A stretch of DNA of 26,357 nt from Methanobacteriota archaeon (GCA_030605245.1 JAUWIS010000001.1:1-26357); one strand, 5' to 3'; counted from the stretch's first letter, positions 2,547 through 26,357 are shown. Numbers and translations are program-made. Notes: generated by a model from the sequence alone, not told the origin.

Positions 2547-2843
2547 TTATTTTGACAGGAAAAACATCATCATTGAACCCATTGCCAGGATTAAGCATAT
2601 TATCAAACCAAGCACACTCATAAGACCTGACAGGAACGCGAATCCACCAATGAACATGATAAAAAAGCCAGTGAATAGCATAAACTCTTTGGCTTTATAA
2701 AAACTGAGGTTTATTATTACAATCGCACCTGAACATATCACTAGGAACAACCCAAACAACCCTTTCATAAGCCCATCATCAACACCCTGCATAACTTCAA
2801 GCGTGGTGTTTGCAGCTTTTAATATAGTGAGGTTGTAACTCAT
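2547..2843 (-). CDS. Multi-pass membrane protein, putative virion component
   Basis: Three hydrophobic segments and an N-terminal NLT/NTT sequon region; coupled to the upstream gene. Confidence 0.8.
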   Translation of the reverse strand: MSYNLTILKAANTTLEVMQGVDDGLMKGLFGLFLVICSGAIVIINLSFYKAKEFMLFTGFFIMFIGGFAFLSGLMSVLGLIICLILAMGSMMMFFLSK

Positions 2844-3304
2844 GCGTATATCCTCCCCATTAGTATAAGCAACACTGAAAGCACAAAGATGAAAAATAAG
2901 ATACCAAGCAACGTGAAAATGATATTATAAACTTGTTCAGCACCAATAATTTCCATTGTGGCTTGCATGATTTGCTGGAACGATATAAGATTCTGGCTTA
3001 TGAACACACCAATTTGATAAGTCAGACTGAAAAACCCAAACAACCCGCCGCCGGCGCTTTCTGTCACAGTCTGATTATAAAACTTGACAGTGATATTATC
3101 CATCTGCTCTTTTGTCTGATTTATGGTTGCGAATGCGCTATAAAGGCTTTTATTACCACCTTGCACATTATAATCAGTAAGATCTATTGGAACTTGATTT
3201 TCTGAGGCTAAGTGCATGAACAGGGAAAAAAAGCTAGTGAACACTAGAGCACCCATTATAAGGGCAACTATTGGCGTATGTAGTTGCATCTGTGCTCTTT
3301 TCAC
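2840..3304 (-). CDS. Membrane protein with class III (prepilin-like) signal peptide, putative minor virion protein
   Basis: MKRA|QMQL followed by a hydrophobic helix; NKS, NQT, NIT, NQT sequons; C-terminal TM. Confidence 0.8.
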   Translation of the reverse strand: MKRAQMQLHTPIVALIMGALVFTSFFSLFMHLASENQVPIDLTDYNVQGGNKSLYSAFATINQTKEQMDNITVKFYNQTVTESAGGGLFGFFSLTYQIGVFISQNLISFQQIMQATMEIIGAEQVYNIIFTLLGILFFIFVLSVLLILMGRIYA

Positions 3305-6108
3305 TCTTTACCCCTCCTTACCATATAAATCATCATGAATACAAAGACAGCCAGGAAATATAACCATCCAATATGAAACCCACTTATGAATCCGACAACT
3401 GAAACAGCGAGTATACCCATGAACATTATTATAACACTACCAGTTATTGTCGCAATACCCATTAATGCCAATGAACCTATAATGATAAGACTGAAAAATA
3501 TCCCTTCTTGAAGTAGTTGTGGTGCATTTTCAGTGATTATAACCCATATTGTGTTGAGGATATGATAACTGTTAGGTGTATTGGTATCAATCATTGCAAC
3601 AGCTTTATAATTTCCAATCCTAGACTTATCATACCTACAGGTCAGGGTAGCAGCCGTTGACAAAGTACAATTATAACAGATATTTTCAAGACCATCAGAA
3701 TTAATAAGATCAACTCTTAAACAGCCTTCACGAACAAGGTTTTGTGTATCTGTATACGTAAACCTAAAATAAGATAAGTTTCCGACAGTGACATTATCCA
3801 GGTTATAAAACGTGTTCCCATATTCTCGCCAACCCTCATATAAATCAGTTCGCAAGTTAAGAATATCTTGAGTATCAATAGAAAGGAAAGGGGTTGGGTC
3901 TGTTTCTTTTATGATGTTTCCAGTAACATCAATATAAATCATCTTATACCATACATCATAAAGCTCGACATATAACACAGCCTGACCTTCAAAGTTAGTC
4001 TGTGCCATCTGTACAGTCTTAAATTCGCTTGTTGTACCGCTCACATAATTTCTAAGCAGTTTTATTCTTATATTTATTGCAGGGTTGCTGTCCTGATCTA
4101 ACAAAGTATGAATAACACGCACCCCTACAGTATCATTCAACAAAAAGAGGTCAATATTTTGTGTGGTACTAGTATTAAGTGTGGCGTAATATGTTCTTGT
4201 ATAGTAGTTTGTAGCATAGTATCTTATTTCATATTCACCAAAAACCAAACCACTGATAAGCTGTTCACCAGTATTTGTGTTATGTATTTGTGATGTGTTG
4301 CCAGTGGTACTTATAATTTCCACATAAACTGTTGTTCCAGAAAGTTTAACTTGTGTTATTTCGTCATAGAATTGGAGAAAAACACCGGCAGAGGTTGCAT
4401 TAAGAACAACAACAACTGGCGTTTTATTAAGATAAAATGTGTCAGCGATTACAAAAAACCCAGACGCAGATCCAGACACTGTATAATTATTCTCAGGATC
4501 AAGCCAGAATGTTACATTATTAGTATTATTGGCGTATAAACTTTGATTACCGATTGTTGCAGTAAACTTTGATAGGAAAGTGCCGGAAGCGGTATCATTG
4601 ATTTTCACAGTCATGTTTGTTTGGATGATAAAGCTCACATTTACAGAATTATAGTTCAGACCGCCAAGAGAATCAAAAGCAATTTCGTGTGAGCTAGTCC
4701 AGATTTCAATATCATATTCATATTCATTAACCTTTATCACATTGTATAAGGCTTCTTTGTCAGCAAAATTTGCATCAAACCATATACCACCCATCCCATT
4801 GCTGCATGTGATATGTGCATTATAATCGGAATACCACATCTGTTTACAAGGATAATCAGCAGTGACAGTGAAAGTATACTTAAGACGCTCATCACCTTTC
4901 TTATCGAATTGGTAAACGGCAGAATGCCTATCACTCTTTTTCACGTCATAGAACTCTTTTAATTCTGTTTCACTATCTTTCAGTTTAATATCAAACTTAA
5001 TCCCACCCCACTCATCCGGCGATTTATAATTGATTTGATTTTCTTTTTCATCTTTGACAGGCTTAAAATCTTTGATTTTGTTATCTGTGTGTGCATCAGA
5101 AACCTCAAAGGTAACATAATATTTTCCGACAGACCACATACTCATATCAATACTCTGGTTCCATGTTCGTGTAGTATTCGGCGAATTATCTGCAACATAC
5201 TCAGTATACAACACACCCCCCGTGCTGTTTTTGATTGTTAGGTTAGTCTGGAACAAATAACTGTCTTGAGTTGAAGCATTAAACGTGAGAGTTCTGTTAG
5301 TGGTAAACCTTGTAGAGTTGTCAGATGCTGGATAGTTGACAGTAATAAATGGTTGTGAATTATCATAGATATATATAAAGACACCTGTGGAGCCATTGAG
5401 TCCGTCGCTCCGATTGCAAGAGACATAATAAAAATACTCCCCATCCAGAGACAGGCCCATCGTAAAATTAAGGGTAGTGTTTGCCGCCACATTGTCCGAA
5501 GTCAGATAATAAGTATCATTCACCGAGAGCGAACAATTCGCAACCATTGAGACATTATAAAGGACATCTAGGATTGTATTATTATGCGTCTCATTGGCTG
5601 GAGATATATGGTTAACTATAATCTCAGGGCTGGCGTTTGCTGCGCTTTCCGTAACTACTGCCAAGATTTCAAAATAATAATCTGTATAATTTATCCAATT
5701 ACTAGTCCCTCTATGCCAATTTATATTAACATCACCCTCTGGCAATCCTACAAGATTTTGATACTGTCGGTTATAATTTGCTCCACCATTATCACAAAGG
5801 ACAAAATATTGTAACCCTGCTGTAAGATTATAATTAAACCCTGTCGCATTGACACCACTAAAAAGTTTTTGCTGTAATAAATTCGCATCAGCATCGTATA
5901 GATATGCGTCCACGCAGCCACTCGCTGGGTGTTTTTCCATTGATATGAACATAACATCAAAGTTAGGTATTATTATCATACCTTCTTTATTAGATGTTCC
6001 ACTTGCCGAAGTCGGCAAGGTCGAGCTATGCATATCCTCAACTACCAAAGCACACACACTAGAAACTAGTAAGAATGACAAGATTGATATTATTATTATT
6101 TTTTTCAT
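3301..6108 (-). CDS. Large secreted beta-rich, Ig-like adhesin/spike protein with C-terminal membrane anchors
   Basis: Sec-type signal peptide, about 30 N-x-S/T sequons (manual count), T/S/N-rich beta-type segments and C-terminal hydrophobic helices. Confidence 0.8.
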   Translation of the reverse strand: MKKIIIISILSFLLVSSVCALVVEDMHSSTLPTSASGTSNKEGMIIIPNFDVMFISMEKHPASGCVDAYLYDADANLLQQKLFSGVNATGFNYNLTAGLQYFVLCDNGGANYNRQYQNLVGLPEGDVNINWHRGTSNWINYTDYYFEILAVVTESAANASPEIIVNHISPANETHNNTILDVLYNVSMVANCSLSVNDTYYLTSDNVAANTTLNFTMGLSLDGEYFYYVSCNRSDGLNGSTGVFIYIYDNSQPFITVNYPASDNSTRFTTNRTLTFNASTQDSYLFQTNLTIKNSTGGVLYTEYVADNSPNTTRTWNQSIDMSMWSVGKYYVTFEVSDAHTDNKIKDFKPVKDEKENQINYKSPDEWGGIKFDIKLKDSETELKEFYDVKKSDRHSAVYQFDKKGDERLKYTFTVTADYPCKQMWYSDYNAHITCSNGMGGIWFDANFADKEALYNVIKVNEYEYDIEIWTSSHEIAFDSLGGLNYNSVNVSFIIQTNMTVKINDTASGTFLSKFTATIGNQSLYANNTNNVTFWLDPENNYTVSGSASGFFVIADTFYLNKTPVVVVLNATSAGVFLQFYDEITQVKLSGTTVYVEIISTTGNTSQIHNTNTGEQLISGLVFGEYEIRYYATNYYTRTYYATLNTSTTQNIDLFLLNDTVGVRVIHTLLDQDSNPAINIRIKLLRNYVSGTTSEFKTVQMAQTNFEGQAVLYVELYDVWYKMIYIDVTGNIIKETDPTPFLSIDTQDILNLRTDLYEGWREYGNTFYNLDNVTVGNLSYFRFTYTDTQNLVREGCLRVDLINSDGLENICYNCTLSTAATLTCRYDKSRIGNYKAVAMIDTNTPNSYHILNTIWVIITENAPQLLQEGIFFSLIIIGSLALMGIATITGSVIIMFMGILAVSVVGFISGFHIGWLYFLAVFVFMMIYMVRRGKE

Positions 6109-6590
6109 CTTCCCGATTTAAATTTAGCGAATAATACGACAGTTCCAAGGAACGCCAACACTCCAAAGATAAAAGCCCAGTTATTAAGTAGGAAACCCAT
6201 TATTTGGAACTTACTGGCATCATCTACAACGCCGGCAGATGTTGAATAACTCCCATAAGTGTTTGAGAGGATTGCAATAGGAATAAGCATGAACCCTATA
6301 AGAATAACAACTATGAAATAAAAAGCAGGGTGTGTGTTAAGTACAAAGAATCCCGAAAAGATTGCCAGGACAAATAACACAAACATGGTAAGAAAAGCAT
6401 AATCCCATATGGTGTTGAATCTGCCGGCATTATCACTCATGATAGCTTTTGAGGCTGGCGAAGCATCACCATCAGCCCACCCTTCCCCAAACTCTCGCAT
6501 TATCTTAGAACCTGCAATTATTATAATGGCAACAGTGAACAGGATAATCCCAAATAGAAGAAAGTCTTGAACATACCCTCTTTTATTCAT
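6105..6590 (-). CDS. Multi-pass membrane protein with class III signal peptide, putative minor virion protein
   Basis: MNKRG|YVQD followed by a 20-aa hydrophobic stretch; three further TM segments. Confidence 0.8.
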   Translation of the reverse strand: MNKRGYVQDFLLFGIILFTVAIIIIAGSKIMREFGEGWADGDASPASKAIMSDNAGRFNTIWDYAFLTMFVLFVLAIFSGFFVLNTHPAFYFIVVILIGFMLIPIAILSNTYGSYSTSAGVVDDASKFQIMGFLLNNWAFIFGVLAFLGTVVLFAKFKSGR

Positions 6591-6769
6591 CTTTTTTTTG
6601 ATTTGAACCTCCCATATATTATTTTTGATAAGTATTCAGCATTTTCAAGGATTCGTTCACTGTCACGTAATGTTTGACTCATACCCTGCTTTCTATCATC
6701 ACTGATTGACTTAATCTTATTATAAAATGTGTCAGGCACCCGCATTAGTCGTGAATTCTTCCTATTCAT
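6587..6769 (-). CDS. Ribbon-helix-helix-like DNA-binding protein
   Basis: SRLMRVPDTFYNKIKSIS...MSQTLRD strand-helix-helix pattern. ATG 6769 overlaps the upstream stop region. Confidence 0.55.
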   Translation of the reverse strand: MNRKNSRLMRVPDTFYNKIKSISDDRKQGMSQTLRDSERILENAEYLSKIIYGRFKSKKR

Positions 6770-8534
6770 TTCCTTTACCCCCACCAATCCATCCGAGCCG
6801 TACCAGGAACCCAAACATAAGTCCCAGGAACCACATAGCAGTGATAAAGCTCATTATTAATATGATTGCTGTGTAAAATGCAGCCATGCTTGGCAACAGC
6901 ATTGAATCGCCCATCTCTGCCAGGTGTTGCACTATATTAGCGACTATCACCAGGAGCCAGCCAGACACAATCCAGACAAGATATTTCATGATAGGTATTT
7001 CCTGACCGTTAGCATCTTTGAAAAAGAAAAACTCAAGCCTATCAGCCAACTTCAACAGTACAAAGATAACACCAAGTATCAATAACCCCATAGTAAGATA
7101 AAGATTATTTTCTGTTGGGATTGTGCAAGGTTCATGAGTTGACACGTTATAAGGTGCTTGATTGATATCACAATCCGAGCTTAAATTAGTGAGAGCGCAA
7201 CATGACGCATAATTCCTGTCAGTGTACCCACGCTCTCTTGAGAATGCTGTACCGTTCCATGCACAAACTGATAATGAGGGGATAATATCTTGTGTGCAAT
7301 AGTTGCAGCTTAACCATGTACCATTATCACCAGGCACATAATCATGTGTACCGCAATTATGCGCATCTGTATAATACTTTTGATATGAATTGTTCACCAT
7401 GCACGGTGTATACTGTACTATCCAATCCTCTGTACAACCTTCATTGTATCCAATCTTCACACCAAGAAGCTGTGCGGTTTCGTTAAGGATTATTGTAGAA
7501 AACATTGATTTATACTGGAAATATCTGGCTGTGTAGTTGAATGTGAGTAGAGGGAAATTGAACGGGTTAAATGTACTATTTGTGCAATCGCTTATGTTAC
7601 AAGCTCTGACACTAATATTCAGTTTAGCAACGCCTCTATGATACATATTTTCAATGTCTTGCTGCTCTAAAACCTTATGAAATATAAAAGCCTCATCAAT
7701 TGTGCCATTTAATGGTACTATACCAAAAGTAAATAACACACCAAGTTTAGTATTATTGACAGTTGATTTTGTAAGTACACCACTATCCACATCATTTTGC
7801 AATATACCATTCACATAAAGTTGCATATGTGTGCCATTGTAAACACAAACAGCATGATACCATTCATCCTGTACAGGGACAAGATTAGAACTTGTATAAA
7901 CACCAAACCCCCATCCACAAGATACATTTTCAGTTGTACCAGCTTGTAGATTATAACCGTCAGGAATTCCTTGCATTCTTGAAATGATCCCTGCATTACT
8001 ATTAACACTGTTAAGTTTGAACCATGCACCATAAGACACGTAATCAACAAAGTCCATTGGCGTACTTTCAACAATATCAACATATCTAAAAAAAGTACCA
8101 TCAAACCCAAGCCCTGTCTTAATCACTCCTGGTTCTGAATAATATCCAGCGTTGTATGTACCGTTATTGTTTGAACCAGAATAATCCTGTATCACACCTG
8201 AACTCTCATCCAAGTGCATGAGAAGCACATTATCACTCATATTAACAGCATAAGGATCTATTATGTCCTGGCTTTGATAATTTGGTAATTCTCTTCCATA
8301 TATGCTACTGTTCCAGGTCATATTAAGCCATTGCGTACTGCTTTTATTACTGTCGTATATCTGGCTATAGTATTCACCTGTCCAGTATGTCTTATTAAGT
8401 TGAACATACCCTCCAAGGTTCAATGACGTGTTAAAGTAAGTGCCATTGAATGCAATACCACTTGTACTAAAATAATCAGCATTCACATTACATAAAACTA
8501 AAACAAAAATAAAAAAGAGTATATAGTTTCTCAT
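6762..8534 (-). CDS. LamG / concanavalin-A-like domain adhesin with Cys-rich region and C-terminal TMs
   Basis: LLMHLDE, WYHAVCVYNGTHMQLYVNG and GTIDEAFIF LamG motifs; signal peptide; about 20 sequons; three C-terminal TMs. Confidence 0.88.
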   Translation of the reverse strand: MRNYILFFIFVLVLCNVNADYFSTSGIAFNGTYFNTSLNLGGYVQLNKTYWTGEYYSQIYDSNKSSTQWLNMTWNSSIYGRELPNYQSQDIIDPYAVNMSDNVLLMHLDESSGVIQDYSGSNNNGTYNAGYYSEPGVIKTGLGFDGTFFRYVDIVESTPMDFVDYVSYGAWFKLNSVNSNAGIISRMQGIPDGYNLQAGTTENVSCGWGFGVYTSSNLVPVQDEWYHAVCVYNGTHMQLYVNGILQNDVDSGVLTKSTVNNTKLGVLFTFGIVPLNGTIDEAFIFHKVLEQQDIENMYHRGVAKLNISVRACNISDCTNSTFNPFNFPLLTFNYTARYFQYKSMFSTIILNETAQLLGVKIGYNEGCTEDWIVQYTPCMVNNSYQKYYTDAHNCGTHDYVPGDNGTWLSCNYCTQDIIPSLSVCAWNGTAFSRERGYTDRNYASCCALTNLSSDCDINQAPYNVSTHEPCTIPTENNLYLTMGLLILGVIFVLLKLADRLEFFFFKDANGQEIPIMKYLVWIVSGWLLVIVANIVQHLAEMGDSMLLPSMAAFYTAIILIMSFITAMWFLGLMFGFLVRLGWIGGGKGNE

Positions 8535-8641
8535 TCTGCTTTGACTTCTTTCTTCTTAAACCGTTCTGGAAACAATTTCCGCTGTATTTCAATCACAGCG
8601 TTTTCAAGCGCATCTAGTCTTATACCTACTTCATAATCCAT
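8531..8641 (-). CDS. 36-aa hypothetical protein
   Basis: MDYEVGIRLDALENAVIEIQRKLFPERFKKKEVKAE*; exactly fills the gap, with TAAATG and ATGA coupling on either side. Confidence 0.65.
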   Translation of the reverse strand: MDYEVGIRLDALENAVIEIQRKLFPERFKKKEVKAE

Positions 8642-11600
8642 TTAAAATCCCTCCATTACAGCTCTACCTCTTATGAATCCCGTTTCTAGTTGTTTTTCAA
8701 AGACACTTTTCCCACGTTTGAACTTGCGTAAGCTTGTTCTAGTAAATATGTTCAGACCTTTTGGTGTTCTTTGTTTTCCAACGATTGGTCGTTCTTCAAG
8801 ACCTGTAAGTTTCCCTAGAGGTTTCTCCCCATGTATTCCAAAAGTCATAGCAGCGATTGACGGTTGATATTTTCTGATATGTTTACCTGCCGGGGCTTTT
8901 GTTTTCCTTGCACCTTTCGAGAATCCACCAGGCATCCAGCCACCTAAGAAAAAAGGGGGGGGAGGGGGGAGGGGTGGAGGGGGGATAAACGGTGTTGTTG
9001 GCACATACCCACCAGGCATTGTATACTTGGTTTTTCCTCTTGTTCCAACCTTAGTAATAGCTGTTTGTGCTGTTACTTGTTCAAATTTGTACTGTTGCAT
9101 TGCCGGCGCAAACTGAAACATCATATAAGGTTTATGCTGTGAAACATAACGCATCCTTGAGATAGGTGCTATACGTGTAATGGGTACAACCTTACGTGTG
9201 GTTGCGGCGAAAGATTCAGCCACAGACATAGCAGCAACACTAACCAGGGGCATTGGGTACGTTGTTCTGAGAGAAAAGGATGATGATATAAGAGAAGCAA
9301 TAGGTGAGGGTGCTATCTGTTGAATATTTATGTGTTGTGAAACCATAGGATGATGTTTTGTGATTTGGGTACGTTGCAACATCAAAGAACCTTTTTTTCC
9401 CACACTTTCCATGATATACTTATCAAACCGTTGTTTAATTGTCAGTTTTTTCCTGAATATAAAGAGAGATCTTGTTGCATGGGTAGCTCCTGTCTGAAAT
9501 GTGGCTATATCAACTTTATATGGGCTTTTCATGTGTAGAGTGGTAGCACCTTTATACTTGTAGAACTTTTGACCTTTAATTACGTGTAGTTTTCTCATCT
9601 GGATAGTGGTGCCTTCCATCACATGTTTATATTTCTGGATATGTCTGACTTTTCCAGAAGCAGTATACGCTTTTGTAATATATTTTAGATTAACTCCTGG
9701 GACTTTCTGGAATTTACCAGTCATACCTTTCATTTCCCAGTAACGCTTCATGACTTTGCTTGATAGTAGCCTACCTTTAAGATGTATAACACCAGTATCA
9801 AAAACACGCTCAATGGTGCCAGCCATAGGGATTGTATGTTTGACTCTAGTTAACACAGTATGTTTTGGCAACTTTTTGCCTAAAATGTGCTTATAGCCGG
9901 TCTTGAACAGTTTATATTGTGGAACTTTGAACGTGTGACGTGTAATTGTGTCTATATGCGCTCTTGTAAGCCTGGAATATAACACAGGCACTCCTTTCTG
10001 GCTAACAATAGTTACAATATCACCATGATACACACCTTTAATCTCTTTGACAGATTTAAATTTCCAGGTTTTACCAATCTTAACTAGAGGTTTCACATGC
10101 CGGCTGAACGCTGTTCCCTTCGGTGCCTGGAGTATCTCACGTTGCACACCTTTTATTTTGCCTTTAGTATAAAATTGTTGACCTTTCTGAATAATAGTGC
10201 CTTTCATAGCGATTCCTCTTTGGATTACTCTCGGCTGGATAAACTTCTTACCACGAAATATGTTAAGAAGTTTTGGTGTATGGATAACAGCGTATGACTC
10301 AGCTTTCCCAAACTCAACAGCTTTTTTCCCTGGCACTTTCTGTCTTAAGTGGTAGGTCTTAGTGTAGACTTTGGTATGTTTTTTGATAAACATGGATTTT
10401 GCTATCGGAAAAGCCATCGCAGCAGCAATGATGTATGTACTTGGTCGTTTATATATTTCAAGTGCTGCTGGCAACGTTCTTTTAAATTCAGATCTGACAA
10501 GCGCTTGTGTAGTAGGTTCATACCTTCCAACAATACCTATTGTTTTGACTTTCGTGATTGCAGCAGCCGGAAATTCAGTAACTAAATAAGGAATATTGCC
10601 ACCAAACCTTACAATGTCCTGGTATACACCAAGTTTCGATGTTGCCGGCGGTTTCCAGGTCACAACCCCGCCAAATGTTGCCGCTTTTTCAACCTGTTTC
10701 CTTAAAGGCGCCCACCGTTCAGCACTTTCACGTTCCAGCTTTTGCCATTTCACAATAGCGGATTCTTTCTGTGACCTTAAAGCTCTATACTTCTCTTTAA
10801 CAGGCACTTCATACCCGAACTCTTTTTCATAAGCTATAGCCTTTTTTTCATAAGCTCTGGCAATAGCCCAATCTTTACTGGCTGCTATCTCAGTTGTTCC
10901 CATCGTTGTCTGGAATATTCCACCCATTGGTATAACACCTGTCATTTGTGCGAGAACAGAAGCTTTGGCAGCCGGCGAAACAAATGTATAAGCTTTACTT
11001 TGTAACATAGGTCTTGTAGTGGAAACTATCGCCGGCACAACAAGCATATCTTTCTTAGGTTTATCTGGCATCAAGAAAGGGGCGATTGGTTTACCTTTCG
11101 CTCTCCATTCTTCTCTGAATTTTTGAGCTATGCCAGCTTGCACCCCAGCCAAGACTTCTTTTTCATACCCTTTCAACACCGGCACTTGAGAATAACCTAC
11201 CTTGACAGCTAGCCTTGCCTGTTCTTGGACTTGTTCGGGTGTAATTTCGCCAAGATACATAAAACCCCCTTCCCTGACACCAGGCTTTAAGACTGTACCT
11301 TTAACATCTTCCTCATAAGCTGCAAACACAGCAGCAGCTTTTGGCGTTATGTATGTTGTTGCAACTGTCTGTTTTCGTGGTTCAGTGTCAATTGTGCCTG
11401 GAGGAGCAGCGTAAACATACTCTCGTACTTCTTTTTGTTTAACTGTTTCTCGTTTAAGATGTTGCTCATATATCTTTTGTTTAATTCCTGATCTGAGTTG
11501 TTCATAATTGACAATCTTCTCAGCCCATTCAGGTCTTGCTTCTTTAATTTGCGCTTTGGTTAGAGTTGGTTCTTTAACTTGGCGTGTGACTATTTCAGGT

Positions 11601-11851
11601 TCTTTTATAGGGACAGCTTTCCCACCCTTAACAACATGCGTAACTTTCGGAGTACCAAACCTGGATGGTGGATTATATTCAACCCCATACTGTCGGGCAA
11701 GTTCCAAAGACCTTTTTTTACTTAGGATTTGTCGTTCAAACTTTTTTCTTTTATGATAAGCAACCTTAGAATATTTACGTTTTCCAAGTGATGTAGCATA
11801 CTCTCTTTTTAAAACTCTATGCAATTCTGGATAACTTCTTGCAACTGCCAC
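8642..11851 (-). CDS. 1069-aa highly basic protein of unknown function (possible core/DNA-associated virion protein)
   Basis: Long uninterrupted ORF, K/R-rich, no signal peptide, one central hydrophobic patch and a poly-Pro tract near the C-terminus. Confidence 0.85.
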   Translation of the reverse strand: MAVARSYPELHRVLKREYATSLGKRKYSKVAYHKRKKFERQILSKKRSLELARQYGVEYNPPSRFGTPKVTHVVKGGKAVPIKEPEIVTRQVKEPTLTKAQIKEARPEWAEKIVNYEQLRSGIKQKIYEQHLKRETVKQKEVREYVYAAPPGTIDTEPRKQTVATTYITPKAAAVFAAYEEDVKGTVLKPGVREGGFMYLGEITPEQVQEQARLAVKVGYSQVPVLKGYEKEVLAGVQAGIAQKFREEWRAKGKPIAPFLMPDKPKKDMLVVPAIVSTTRPMLQSKAYTFVSPAAKASVLAQMTGVIPMGGIFQTTMGTTEIAASKDWAIARAYEKKAIAYEKEFGYEVPVKEKYRALRSQKESAIVKWQKLERESAERWAPLRKQVEKAATFGGVVTWKPPATSKLGVYQDIVRFGGNIPYLVTEFPAAAITKVKTIGIVGRYEPTTQALVRSEFKRTLPAALEIYKRPSTYIIAAAMAFPIAKSMFIKKHTKVYTKTYHLRQKVPGKKAVEFGKAESYAVIHTPKLLNIFRGKKFIQPRVIQRGIAMKGTIIQKGQQFYTKGKIKGVQREILQAPKGTAFSRHVKPLVKIGKTWKFKSVKEIKGVYHGDIVTIVSQKGVPVLYSRLTRAHIDTITRHTFKVPQYKLFKTGYKHILGKKLPKHTVLTRVKHTIPMAGTIERVFDTGVIHLKGRLLSSKVMKRYWEMKGMTGKFQKVPGVNLKYITKAYTASGKVRHIQKYKHVMEGTTIQMRKLHVIKGQKFYKYKGATTLHMKSPYKVDIATFQTGATHATRSLFIFRKKLTIKQRFDKYIMESVGKKGSLMLQRTQITKHHPMVSQHINIQQIAPSPIASLISSSFSLRTTYPMPLVSVAAMSVAESFAATTRKVVPITRIAPISRMRYVSQHKPYMMFQFAPAMQQYKFEQVTAQTAITKVGTRGKTKYTMPGGYVPTTPFIPPPPLPPPPPFFLGGWMPGGFSKGARKTKAPAGKHIRKYQPSIAAMTFGIHGEKPLGKLTGLEERPIVGKQRTPKGLNIFTRTSLRKFKRGKSVFEKQLETGFIRGRAVMEGF
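8955..8984 (+). repeat. G-tract cluster (encodes PPPLPPPPP on the minus strand)
   Basis: G8-A-G6-A-G4-T-G2-A-G6. Confidence 0.9.
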
Positions 11852-11985
11852 TTAAATATATTCTATGACATAACTTATATTTATTATTTTATGAACTGGT
11901 TAACCATGTTTAATATATAGTGTTAACATAATCTTATATAATAATTACACCTTAACATTCATACTGAACTATGGAGGTACAGCGA
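11852..11985. promoter_or_regulatory. Divergent AT-rich promoter region with two GTTAAC-centred palindromes and a Shine-Dalgarno site
   Basis: TATA-like TTTAATATATAG (11909-11920), TGGTTAACCA (11897-11906), TGTTAACA (11921-11928) and GGAGGT (11973-11978). Confidence 0.55.
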
Positions 11986-12255
11986 ATGAGGAACAAAAAA
12001 GGTTACAGACTTCAAGACCTTCTTCCTGTCGCTATAATCTTTGTGGTTGCAACAATTGCTATATCTATTGGCGCAGACATTCTGAGTGGTGTACGTGACG
12101 GTCAAACGGTCGACACAGCATCCTACAATGTAAGCACCTATGGATTGCAAGGTATGCTGGAACTGGGTTCCTGGGTGCCAACGCTGGCTCTTGTCGTGGC
12201 TGCTGCGATTGTGATCGGCGTATTGGTCTACAGCTTTGCATTTGGTCGTAACTGA
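11986..12255 (+). CDS. Putative major capsid protein of spindle-shaped-virus type (two hydrophobic helices) with class III signal peptide
   Basis: MRNKKG|YRLQD, hydrophobic helix 1, loop with NVS sequon, helix 2 SWVPTLALVVAAAIVIGVLVYSF. It has a strong SD and its own transcription unit. Confidence 0.7.
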   Translation: MRNKKGYRLQDLLPVAIIFVVATIAISIGADILSGVRDGQTVDTASYNVSTYGLQGMLELGSWVPTLALVVAAAIVIGVLVYSFAFGRN

Positions 12256-19182: not shown

Positions 19183-19830
19183 ATGGAAAAAATCAAAGTG
19201 CTTAACTTGTATGCAGGGATTGGAGGTAATAGAAAACTCTGGCCTGATAAAGAGATAGAGGTTACTGCTGTAGAAATTAATGATAAGATTGCAACAGTGT
19301 ATAAAGATTTGTTTCCAAACGATAAAGTGGTTGTTGCAGATGCGCACCAATATCTTTTGGAACATTATAAAGAGTTTGATTTCATCTGGAGCAGCCCGCC
19401 ATGTCCTACGCATTCAGGTACAAACCATTTCCTTAATGCTCAAGGTGTTGTAAGGTACCCGGACATGAAACTGTATCAGGAAATAATATTCATCAAAGCT
19501 TGGTTTCACGGTCTTTATTGTGTAGAGAACGTGATACCATATTATGAACCGCTCCTTAATCCATACATCAGTGAAAGACATTGCTTCTGGTCAAATTTCC
19601 ATATATCAAACCGTAAAAAAGATTTGAGTATATCAATCACAAACTCCAGAGCCACTACAAGAAGAACAAGAAAGCAATACCTTAAATCGCTTGAATTGTA
19701 TCATGGGTTCGATTTGTCAAAATATAAACTTTATGATAAAAGACAAGTGTTAAGGAATTGTGTTCATCCTAAATTGGGAAAGTATATCTGGGATTGTGCA
19801 TTCAAGGAGAAACAAGATAAACTCGTATAA
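19183..19830 (+). CDS. DNA cytosine-C5 methyltransferase
   Basis: Motif I LYAGIGG, motif IV SPPCPTHS, motif VI ENV. Confidence 0.92.
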   Translation: MEKIKVLNLYAGIGGNRKLWPDKEIEVTAVEINDKIATVYKDLFPNDKVVVADAHQYLLEHYKEFDFIWSSPPCPTHSGTNHFLNAQGVVRYPDMKLYQEIIFIKAWFHGLYCVENVIPYYEPLLNPYISERHCFWSNFHISNRKKDLSISITNSRATTRRTRKQYLKSLELYHGFDLSKYKLYDKRQVLRNCVHPKLGKYIWDCAFKEKQDKLV

Positions 19831-20750
19831 TGGTAAAGATACAACCAGGGAACCAGGATTATTACATGGATGGTTACTTGAAAAGTAACATGGATATAAT
19901 CAAAGATTTAATTAATGACGCAGACCATGATTTTGTAGGTATAGTGGATGGGTTCGAGGGCGTAGGAAAATCCGTACTGGCAATGCAGATTGGCTATTAT
20001 GTTGACCCATCCCTCACACTTGATAGGGTATGCTTCACATCCACAGAGTACAGGGATGCGGTCAAGAAAGCTAAGAAAGGACAGTGTGTGATATATGATG
20101 AGGCAATAACCGGCGCATTCAATCGTGAGGCTATCCAACAGATGAATGTTATCCTCATTAAGATGATGGCGCAAGTCAGACAAAAGAACCTGTTTATGCT
20201 TTTAGTGTTACCATCTTTCTTTGACCTTGACAAGAACCTGGCGCTGTGGCGTTCCAAGTTCCTGGTTCATGCAGTATACGGTAAAAGGTTTCAGCGTGGA
20301 TATTTCAAGTTTGCAAACCTGAACAAGAAGCAAGACATATATGTTAAAGGTCAAAAGACATACTACTATCCAGCAAGGGATAGCGCCTGGAACTTTAAGG
20401 GTAGGTTCACCAAACATTACACAATGCCTGAACGAGCATACAGGAATAAAAAGTCGCAGAGCTTTGAAGCTTCGGATTATCGGGTAGTCAGTGCCAGGAA
20501 AGCCAGGTCGCAGCGTGACAGCCTTATAACCATATTACTGAATATAGGATTTAAGCAGGCAGAGGTAGCATACTTCTCAGACTTATTCAATGAGGGCTTA
20601 ACCCAGCGACAAGTGGGGAATGTTGCACTCAAGTTTAAGAAATTAGAAAACAGTATAGACATTAATATACTTAAATCCATTAAGGATAAGGTTAAAGGTT
20701 TAAAGAGCCAGGAAAAGGTAAAAGATACAGCGCCACCACCAATACAATGA
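19830..20750 (+). CDS. Zot/pI-like P-loop ATPase with C-terminal HTH-like extension (putative morphogenesis ATPase)
   Basis: Walker A GFEGVGKS, Walker B VIYDE, and RQKNLFMLLVLPSFFDLDK segment typical of Zot-like viral ATPases. Confidence 0.85.
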   Translation: MVKIQPGNQDYYMDGYLKSNMDIIKDLINDADHDFVGIVDGFEGVGKSVLAMQIGYYVDPSLTLDRVCFTSTEYRDAVKKAKKGQCVIYDEAITGAFNREAIQQMNVILIKMMAQVRQKNLFMLLVLPSFFDLDKNLALWRSKFLVHAVYGKRFQRGYFKFANLNKKQDIYVKGQKTYYYPARDSAWNFKGRFTKHYTMPERAYRNKKSQSFEASDYRVVSARKARSQRDSLITILLNIGFKQAEVAYFSDLFNEGLTQRQVGNVALKFKKLENSIDINILKSIKDKVKGLKSQEKVKDTAPPPIQ

Positions 20751-26294: not shown

Positions 26295-26357
26295 AGAGTT
26301 ACTTGCAGCCATGATACTGGGATCATTATTTGGATTGGTGTTAGGTATATTGTTGAC
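26278..26357 (+). CDS. 5' part of junction-spanning membrane protein (continues at the window start)
   Basis: ATG 26278 follows GAGGG; the frame is open across the terminal repeat. Confidence 0.8.
   Translation, partial: MRLFNKELLAAMILGSLFGLVLGILL
26333..26357. repeat. Terminal direct repeat, right copy
   Basis: Identical to 1-25. Confidence 0.97.

Follow-up and report, generated by a model that had tools for sequence, protein, structure and literature searches.

We analysed a 26,357-nt stretch of DNA from a Methanobacteriota archaeon (GCA_030605245.1 JAUWIS010000001.1:1-26357), referred to here as the window, which is the entire contig C62 of an archaeal metagenome-assembled genome (MAG) of 1.03 Mb that is 69% complete. 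The two ends of the window overlap exactly by 25 bases (1-25 = 26333-26357), and the window is therefore a complete circular genome of 26,332 bp. It is that of an archaeal virus-like element, binned with a cold-seep archaeal MAG. Our subject is a gene in this genome for an 89-amino-acid (aa) candidate major coat protein, for brevity called the coat protein, together with the genes for two further small proteins of 161 and 154 aa. A sequence-only reading of the window had proposed that all three are virion proteins with class III (type IV prepilin-type) leaders that a host prepilin peptidase would remove. Three N-termini with short basic leaders are indeed present, the third of them only from a GTG start. 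The genes are as follows, with an arrow between positions -1 and +1 of the predicted cut site:

11986..12255, plus strand: major coat protein candidate, 89 aa, MRNKKG↓YRLQDLLPVAIIF
6105..6590, minus strand: 161-aa protein with four hydrophobic segments, MNKRG↓YVQDFLLFGIILF, leader codons 6590-6576
2840..3304, minus strand: membrane protein of 154 aa (GTG at 3304) or 149 aa (ATG at 3289), MKRA↓QMQL

The coat gene start at 11986 is chosen both by the gene caller and by most homologues. The protein begins MRNKKG↓YRLQD, with the leader MRNKKG in codons 11986-12003 and the predicted cut between 12003 and 12004, and continues into a hydrophobic helix of 19 residues. This uncharged 19-residue stretch begins at +6 and is helical in an AlphaFold2 (AF2) model, in which the whole protein forms a helical hairpin (helices 9-38 and 45-86; predicted local distance difference test score 83). 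The loop between the helices contains an N-x-S/T sequon, which is present in 187 of 188 members of the coat family, and the C-terminal tail is basic in the coat protein and its close homologues.

We applied the substrate criteria for archaeal prepilin peptidases quoted in PMC4371748, namely G, A or S at -1, a charged residue at -2, a hydrophobic H-domain next and, in a subset of substrates, D or E at +5. The charged residue at -2 is critical for the archaeal enzymes (PMC4371748). Position -1 is occupied by G6 and G5, and the charged -2 by K5 and R4, in the coat and 161-aa proteins, respectively. The coat leader is short, and the 19-residue H-domain follows closely.

A word-indexed search returned 40 close homologues of the coat protein (46-100% identity). 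Residues D11, L12 and P14 are invariant in their alignment (D11-L-x-P14), and helix 1 is as conserved as helix 2. The pair [KR][GA] occupies -2/-1, in register with the D at +5, in 26 of the 40; one sequence has a one-residue insertion. Another 13 have only 0-2 residues ahead of +1 (M at +1 in ten; also M↓Y, MA↓Y, MA↓L and ML↓M). In related loci L011 (both paralogues), L013 (the second), L019 (both) and L020 the short forms are real, as they are preceded by in-frame stops and by Shine-Dalgarno sequences. A tree built without the leader columns contains eight changes of leader state, at least two of which are forced by well-supported branches, and the leader has thus been lost repeatedly, two to eight times on this tree.

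The pattern extends far beyond the close homologues. A profile search of 1.84 billion representatives identified 1473 coat family proteins at E<=1e-3 (373 at E<=1e-10), each the representative of a cluster at 50% identity. The N-terminal statistics come from 188 aligned family members, of which 128 bear a leader, 127 of these being scorable at the minus positions. Leaders are 3-36 residues long (median 8), and the 60 leaderless members start at +1 or no more than two residues from it. At -1, in register with Asp/Glu at +5, there are 96 G, 8 A and 4 S (G/A/S in 108 of 127); position -2 is K in 85 and R in 11, and position -3 is K in 91 and R in 11. The relative entropy at -3/-2 is about 3 bits, equal to that of the best-conserved helix positions. 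On the other side of the predicted cut, leader-bearing members have Y (44), F (37), M (15) or I (11) at +1, L, I or V at +3, D at +5 in 70 of 128 and L at +6 in 101. Many family members read KKG↓FTLxD/E, which we take to be the signature of bacterial type IV pilins. A leader that varies tenfold in length and is free in sequence, while ending in the same three residues, looks for that reason like a cleavage site. Moreover, each of the repeated truncations resumes no more than two residues from +1, which indicates selection on where the mature N-terminus lies.

The coat family also varies in copy number and length. The related genomes L011, L012, L013 and L019 have two tandem coat paralogues, compared with the single copy in the window, and the second paralogue often has extra Cys-rich sequence inserted in its loop (TGAAGCN.T..T.CG, for example). 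Many family members (P0061, P0076, P0108, P0132, P0134, P0136, P0138 and others) have lengths of 155-250 aa and two matches to the coat profile, which makes them double-length coat proteins, either tandem or fused.

The leader of the 161-aa protein is likewise conserved. The pattern M(K)N[KR][KR]G↓[YL][VIM]QD is kept in seven of seven homologues, which are 35-73% identical to it. A homologue at L015:3763-4230 is called from an internal ATG, and a GTG six codons upstream restores an MNKKGY start. Comparison of the 161-aa protein with the coat family by hhalign gives a probability of 91% (E 1e-6) over residues 1-42, corresponding to the coat leader and first helix. A hidden Markov model (HMM) of this N-terminal module, run on the window, finds the coat gene itself only, so that it is the profile-profile comparison that links the two proteins. 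The 161-aa protein shares the N-terminal module of the coat protein and is a candidate minor virion or assembly protein. Its architecture is not pilin-like, given the four hydrophobic segments.

The third protein does not follow this pattern. The GTG at 3304 shares a GTGA overlap with the upstream stop, and a strong Shine-Dalgarno sequence, AAGGAGG, lies 8 nt ahead of it; the gene caller prefers the ATG five codons (15 nt) downstream. The sole homologue begins at an ATGA overlap where that downstream ATG lies; its N-terminus, MKLETPF, lacks any [KR][GA]. The 154-aa candidate is not supported, since its leader requires the GTG start and its single homologue lacks the site. Conservation of the -2/-1 residues among homologues had been set beforehand as the test of the proposed leaders, and by that measure the proposal stands for the coat family and the 161-aa protein (seven of seven homologues) and falls for the 154-aa protein.

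How often such a leader arises by chance was estimated from the 191 host open reading frames (ORFs) that are 120 aa or longer and whose N-terminal part contains a hydrophobic core. The pair [KR][GA] lies 0-6 residues ahead of the core in 11 of these (6%). Against this background three such leaders in one small virus are only mildly unusual, and the strength of the case lies in the conservation seen for the coat and 161-aa proteins. For these two, the alignments support a conserved, class III-like leader in which Gly at -1 is preceded by basic residues at -3/-2; an aromatic or aliphatic +1 residue, Asp at +5 and a hydrophobic helix come next. The central idea of the sequence-only reading is in this sense partly supported: it appears to hold for two of the three proteins and to extend well beyond this genome.

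The claim that the virus has no peptidase gene of its own is consistent with Pfam scans of the larger ORFs and, for related loci, with the Pfam annotations of neighbouring genes where these were looked up. A suitable enzyme is found in the putative host MAG, where contig C157 (L017, G000:C157) encodes a 302-aa FlaK/PibD-type peptidase matching Arc_PepC_II (2e-18), Peptidase_A24 and FlaK. Judged by eye, D26 and the GGAD motif presumably supply the catalytic aspartates. The peptidase operon lies at L017 425-2952 on the minus strand, and its next two genes encode a DUF7289/Pilin_N protein with the N-terminus MDDKQA↓VSPII and a DUF7266 protein with the N-terminus NKG↓YAEIGY. The -1/+1 pair of the latter is identical to that of the viral proteins, and its NKG↓Y start suggests that DUF7266 proteins are class III substrates. 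Elsewhere the MAG encodes a Pilin_N pilin (ENG↓VSEVVG) and a PilB/TadC pair. A complex prediction for the host peptidase and the coat precursor (score 0.00, partner fold confidence <50) speaks neither for nor against binding. Most archaea encode a FlaK/PibD-type peptidase, so the argument is independent of this particular MAG. An atlas look-up of the host peptidase points to Thermoplasmatota, as a lead only.

The other genes of the window that bear on the interpretation are:

1016-1669: serine recombinase
2547..2843, minus strand: 98-aa hydrophobic (membrane-like) protein, last gene of the structural block
3301..6108, minus strand: 935-aa protein rich in N-x-S/T sequons, homologues in L012-L014; candidate spike
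6762..8534, minus strand: 590-aa protein with Laminin_G_3 (ConA-like lectin), Pfam PF13385, 2.3e-16; candidate spike or adhesin
8642..11851, minus strand: 1069-aa strongly basic protein, divergent from the coat gene; opens the structural block
19830..20750, plus strand: 306-aa P-loop nucleoside triphosphatase (NTPase), homologues in related loci

The minus-strand structural block spans 11.85-2.5 kb, and the coat gene, on the plus strand, diverges from it. The 1069-aa protein shows weak tblastn similarity to the proteins at the same position in L011 and L012 and matched no Pfam or PHROG family. Both the 590-aa and the 935-aa proteins have signal-peptide-like hydrophobic N-termini and hydrophobic segments at the C-terminus. 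The plus-strand arm at 16.4-26 kb encodes a winged helix-turn-helix (wHTH)-like protein, a C5 methyltransferase, an SNF2 helicase fused to an N6/N4 methyltransferase, the P-loop NTPase and membrane proteins.

The 306-aa NTPase had been read as a Zot-like ATPase that would act in assembly. It has no match to Zot (PF05707) at E<=10 and none to any Pfam family at E<=0.01; its weak matches are to nSTAND3 (0.014), to a DnaA-like PHROG family (0.0014) and to one unnamed PHROG family, and BLASTP against the SSV1 DnaA-like ATPase gave no significant similarity. A Zot-like identity is not supported by these results. The related suggestion that the virus borrows pilus machinery also finds no backing. 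There is no indication of PilB/PilC use (T2SSE and T2SSF had no match among the larger window ORFs scanned), and the two leader-bearing proteins, a two-helix hairpin and a membrane protein with four hydrophobic segments, are not bitopic proteins with a globular domain as type IV pilins proper are.

The sole sequencing run that contains the window sequence is a cold-seep metagenome, and the virus is uncultured. The G+C content of the window is 36.2%, compared with 37.1% for the MAG. The MAG contains an archaeal small-subunit ribosomal RNA fragment, and neither mcrA nor archaeal amoA was found in it. The rest of the MAG has no CRISPR-like or other short matches to the virus and no copies of viral proteins, and the coat gene is present in none of 60 relatives. 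Searches of a phage and archaeal-virus collection by megablast and tblastn with the structural block, the coat protein and the NTPase returned no match, and a scan of IMG/VR with the coat alignment gave no confirmed match. A coat gene 69% identical to that of the window lies beside a tyrosine-integrase-like gene in L010 (CAYVNN010000005.1, a 112-kb contig labelled Methanosarcinales archaeon; cf. L004-L007), about 1 kb from the end of this MAG contig, and may belong to an integrated relative. The taxonomic label of the L010 MAG is doubtful because no mcrA match was found in it.

Several features make the 89-aa protein a candidate for a coat protein that works like those of spindle-shaped viruses, without assignment to the VP1_VP3 or VP21 family. 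It has the expected mature length of about 70-90 aa and two hydrophobic helices with a sequon between them. Its gene adjoins those for large proteins that begin like signal peptides and have hydrophobic segments toward the C-terminus, an arrangement also found in His1. In an ESM-atlas feature search the nearest clusters are viral, and a VP1_VP3 cluster appears at rank 62 with a score of 0.88. Foldseek comparison of the AF2 hairpin with the PDB and BFVD returned nothing more specific than generic helical hairpins (E>0.4 throughout), and searches of Pfam, NCBIfam and PHROG with the three leader candidates (89, 161 and 154 aa) gave nothing meaningful.

A precedent for cleavage in this type of protein comes from the fuselloviruses. 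SSV1 VP1 is made as a precursor whose mature N-terminus is Glu66, and the five residues preceding it are essential (PMC5748691). We translated VP1 from seven fusellovirus records (L026-L032; SSV1 VP1 = L026:12567-13001). The residues ahead of the conserved Glu are TKG in SSV1 and ASV1, KKA in SSV2, RRA in SSV19 and SSVRH, and RKG in M.04.0.29 and SMF1 (for SMF1 in the upstream frame). In all seven the Glu follows a basic leader of variable length and stands ahead of a long hydrophobic helix. VP3, the minor paralogue, begins ME and is leaderless in the same register. The [KR][GA]↓Glu pattern of VP1 fits a PibD site. In the literature that we searched the SSV1 VP1 cut is not linked to PibD and no experiment ties PibD to a capsid protein; a PibD link is also absent from a 2026 preprint on VP1-like proteins of Dehalococcoides elements.

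Given their conserved pilin-type leaders, the coat and 161-aa proteins are probably trimmed by a host prepilin peptidase. The reading that we favour, and hold to be fairly likely, is that the 89-aa major coat protein is made as a class III precursor, trimmed by the host A24 peptidase and packed in the virion of a spindle- or pleomorphic-type archaeal virus. The coat protein would be synthesised as a precursor with a class III signal, and its short basic leader would keep the N-terminus in the cytoplasm while the hairpin inserts into the membrane, with the glycosylatable loop facing outward and the basic C-terminal tail inward. The host FlaK/PibD-type aspartic peptidase would then cut after Lys-Lys-Gly, releasing an N-terminus whose register is fixed (Tyr/Phe/Met at +1 and Asp/Glu at +5), and the trimmed subunit would pack into the virion shell. 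The 161-aa protein, with the same N-terminal module, would undergo the same processing and is probably a minor virion component. Lineages that have lost the leader would start translation at +1 and so reach the same mature end without the peptidase.

A number of observations weigh against this reading. We infer cleavage, the A24 peptidase as the enzyme and the coat protein as a virion component, the last from architecture and gene context, and binning alone links virus to host. The coat protein has no detectable homology to fusellovirus VP1/VP3 (no PF06281 match by hmmscan, hhalign 2.6%) or to His1 VP21 (hhalign 2%), and the coat profile gives only E>1 against the six frames of SSV1 and His1. 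Neither the coat nor the 161-aa protein matches the curated pilin and archaellin N-terminal profiles TIGR02537, PF07790, PF04021 and PF07963 in Pfam and NCBIfam scans at E<=10, whereas the host pilins do match pilin N-terminal profiles. Both proteins are polytopic, unlike known class III substrates, and in the coat protein charged residues (R at +2, D at +5) lie between the cut site and the helix. The FlaFind pattern, as we understand it, would refuse Tyr at +1. Within the family, KKG is displaced by 1-2 residues in about 15 of 188 members, and in about 10 of 188 the basic leader terminates in E, N, K or R rather than G/A. Finally, with a third of the coat homologues leaderless, processing is not obligatory for the family, and the leader could be a dispensable topology signal.

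This last point leads to the strongest competing explanation, namely that the basic N-terminus is never cleaved and acts as a topology or anchoring element. Lys-Lys would follow the positive-inside rule or contact DNA inside the particle, Gly would cap the first helix, and the whole could be lost without harm. Such an element would agree with the leaderless members and with the leaders that lack G/A at -1, with a C-terminal tail that is also basic, placing both ends on the same side, with the chance rate of [KR][GA] before the N-terminal helix of host membrane ORFs, and with the lack of a pilin-profile match. However, topology does not need a Gly fixed at the end of leaders that range from 3 to 36 residues, and it leaves unexplained why translation restarts at or within two residues of +1 after independent losses. 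In addition, the same layout in fuselloviruses is known to be cut exactly after [KR][GA], the cut having been mapped in SSV1. We regard an uncleaved anchor as unlikely, although it deserves to be kept in mind.

Alternatively, the precursor could be cut at or near the predicted site by a protease outside the A24 family, either a host or a viral membrane protease. To our knowledge only A24 prepilin peptidases recognise [KR][GAS] followed by a hydrophobic helix at the cytoplasmic face of the membrane, and this counts against another enzyme, as does the lack of any recognised protease gene in the genome or, with the Pfam families looked up, among the neighbours in related loci. Such a protease is what is now assumed for SSV1 VP1: the literature (2017) gives the enzyme as unknown and looked for Glu specificity (PMC5748691), work from 2022 names no protease, and our literature search yielded no experiment to connect PibD with a capsid protein. 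We consider this alternative improbable. A Sec-type (class I) signal peptide in the first helix, cut by signal peptidase I after Ile-Gly-Ala30 to leave a single-helix coat of about 59 residues that would resemble inovirus pVIII in being acidic at the N-terminus and basic at the C-terminus, is the least probable of all: the n-region, h-region and small residues at -1 and -3 are laid out as required, G29 and A30 are invariant in close homologues (G in 113 of 128 family-wide) and the hypothetical mature part does run from acidic through hydrophobic to basic, but the first helix is conserved as much as or more than the rest, which is atypical of signal peptides, AF2 helix 9-38 continues through IGA and packs on helix 2, leaderless members have no positive n-region, and no Zot-type ATPase was found.

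Trimming by the host prepilin peptidase may be part of something broader. It is conceivable, though we would not expect it, that hairpin-type archaeal virus coats, SSV1 VP1 included, are generally matured by PibD/FlaK, and that the N-terminal module underlying the coat family (KKG↓F/Y-x-L-x-D/E and a hydrophobic helix) was exapted from type IV pilins, its free +1 amine and +5 acid forming an inter-subunit contact of the kind found in pilus cores. Such a contact would explain why leaderless variants always restart at +1.

If trimming by the host enzyme is correct, it would represent a new route of capsid maturation and a new dependence of a virus on a host enzyme of envelope biogenesis; our search of the literature found no report of a virus capsid protein matured by a prepilin peptidase. 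The long-standing question of the SSV1 VP1 protease becomes testable, as the [KR][GA] pattern, present in every fusellovirus examined, points to PibD, for which deletion strains and in vitro assays exist. Resistance of pibD mutants to SSV9 has been explained by the loss of pili as receptors (PMC7217056), and a second, intracellular block at maturation would then have to be considered. The coat family, with its 1473 clusters, marks a large group of sediment and ocean archaeal viruses that is essentially undescribed.

Among known systems, the fusellovirus proteins VP1 and VP3 (SSV1; VP1_VP3, PF06281) share several features with the coat protein. They are small and have two hydrophobic helices joined by a sequon-bearing loop, and their basic C-terminal tail is short; VP1 has a variable basic N-terminal extension ending in [KR][GA], for which the cut has been mapped experimentally in SSV1, and VP3 provides a leaderless paralogue in register, so that both states occur as in the window coat family. 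However, +1 is Glu in the fuselloviruses and Tyr/Phe/Met in the coat family, the +5 Asp and the L-L-P motif are missing from VP1, and the host of the window virus is a mesophilic cold-seep archaeon, not a member of the Sulfolobales. VP21, the major capsid protein of His1 (Halspiviridae), is similar in its length (73 aa), two helices, loop sequon and basic tail, and the His1 record describes signal sequences and C-terminal anchors for the products of neighbouring genes. It differs in its acidic N-terminus, MVEIDDG, which has no [KR][GA] site. The inovirus procoat pVIII is also a small coat protein stored in the membrane and matured by a host signal peptidase before non-lytic assembly, but it depends on signal peptidase I and a Zot-family ATPase, neither of which is indicated in the window virus.

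The archaeal class III substrates, which comprise pilins, archaellins and sugar-binding proteins processed by PibD, FlaK or EppA, have the same basic leader, G/A/S at -1, charged -2 and hydrophobic helix, and D/E at +5 is shared with EppA substrates and bacterial pilins (PMC4371748). The viral proteins differ from them in being a hairpin and a polytopic protein with no external globular domain, encoded by a virus without a PilB/PilC partner. The pleolipovirus SNJ2 encodes the pilins PilA1 and PilA2, which are processed by host PibD (PMC12426801). These are true pilins that build host pili rather than virion components; however, as virus-encoded proteins with prepilin-type leaders that need the host peptidase, they are the nearest published case to the one described here.

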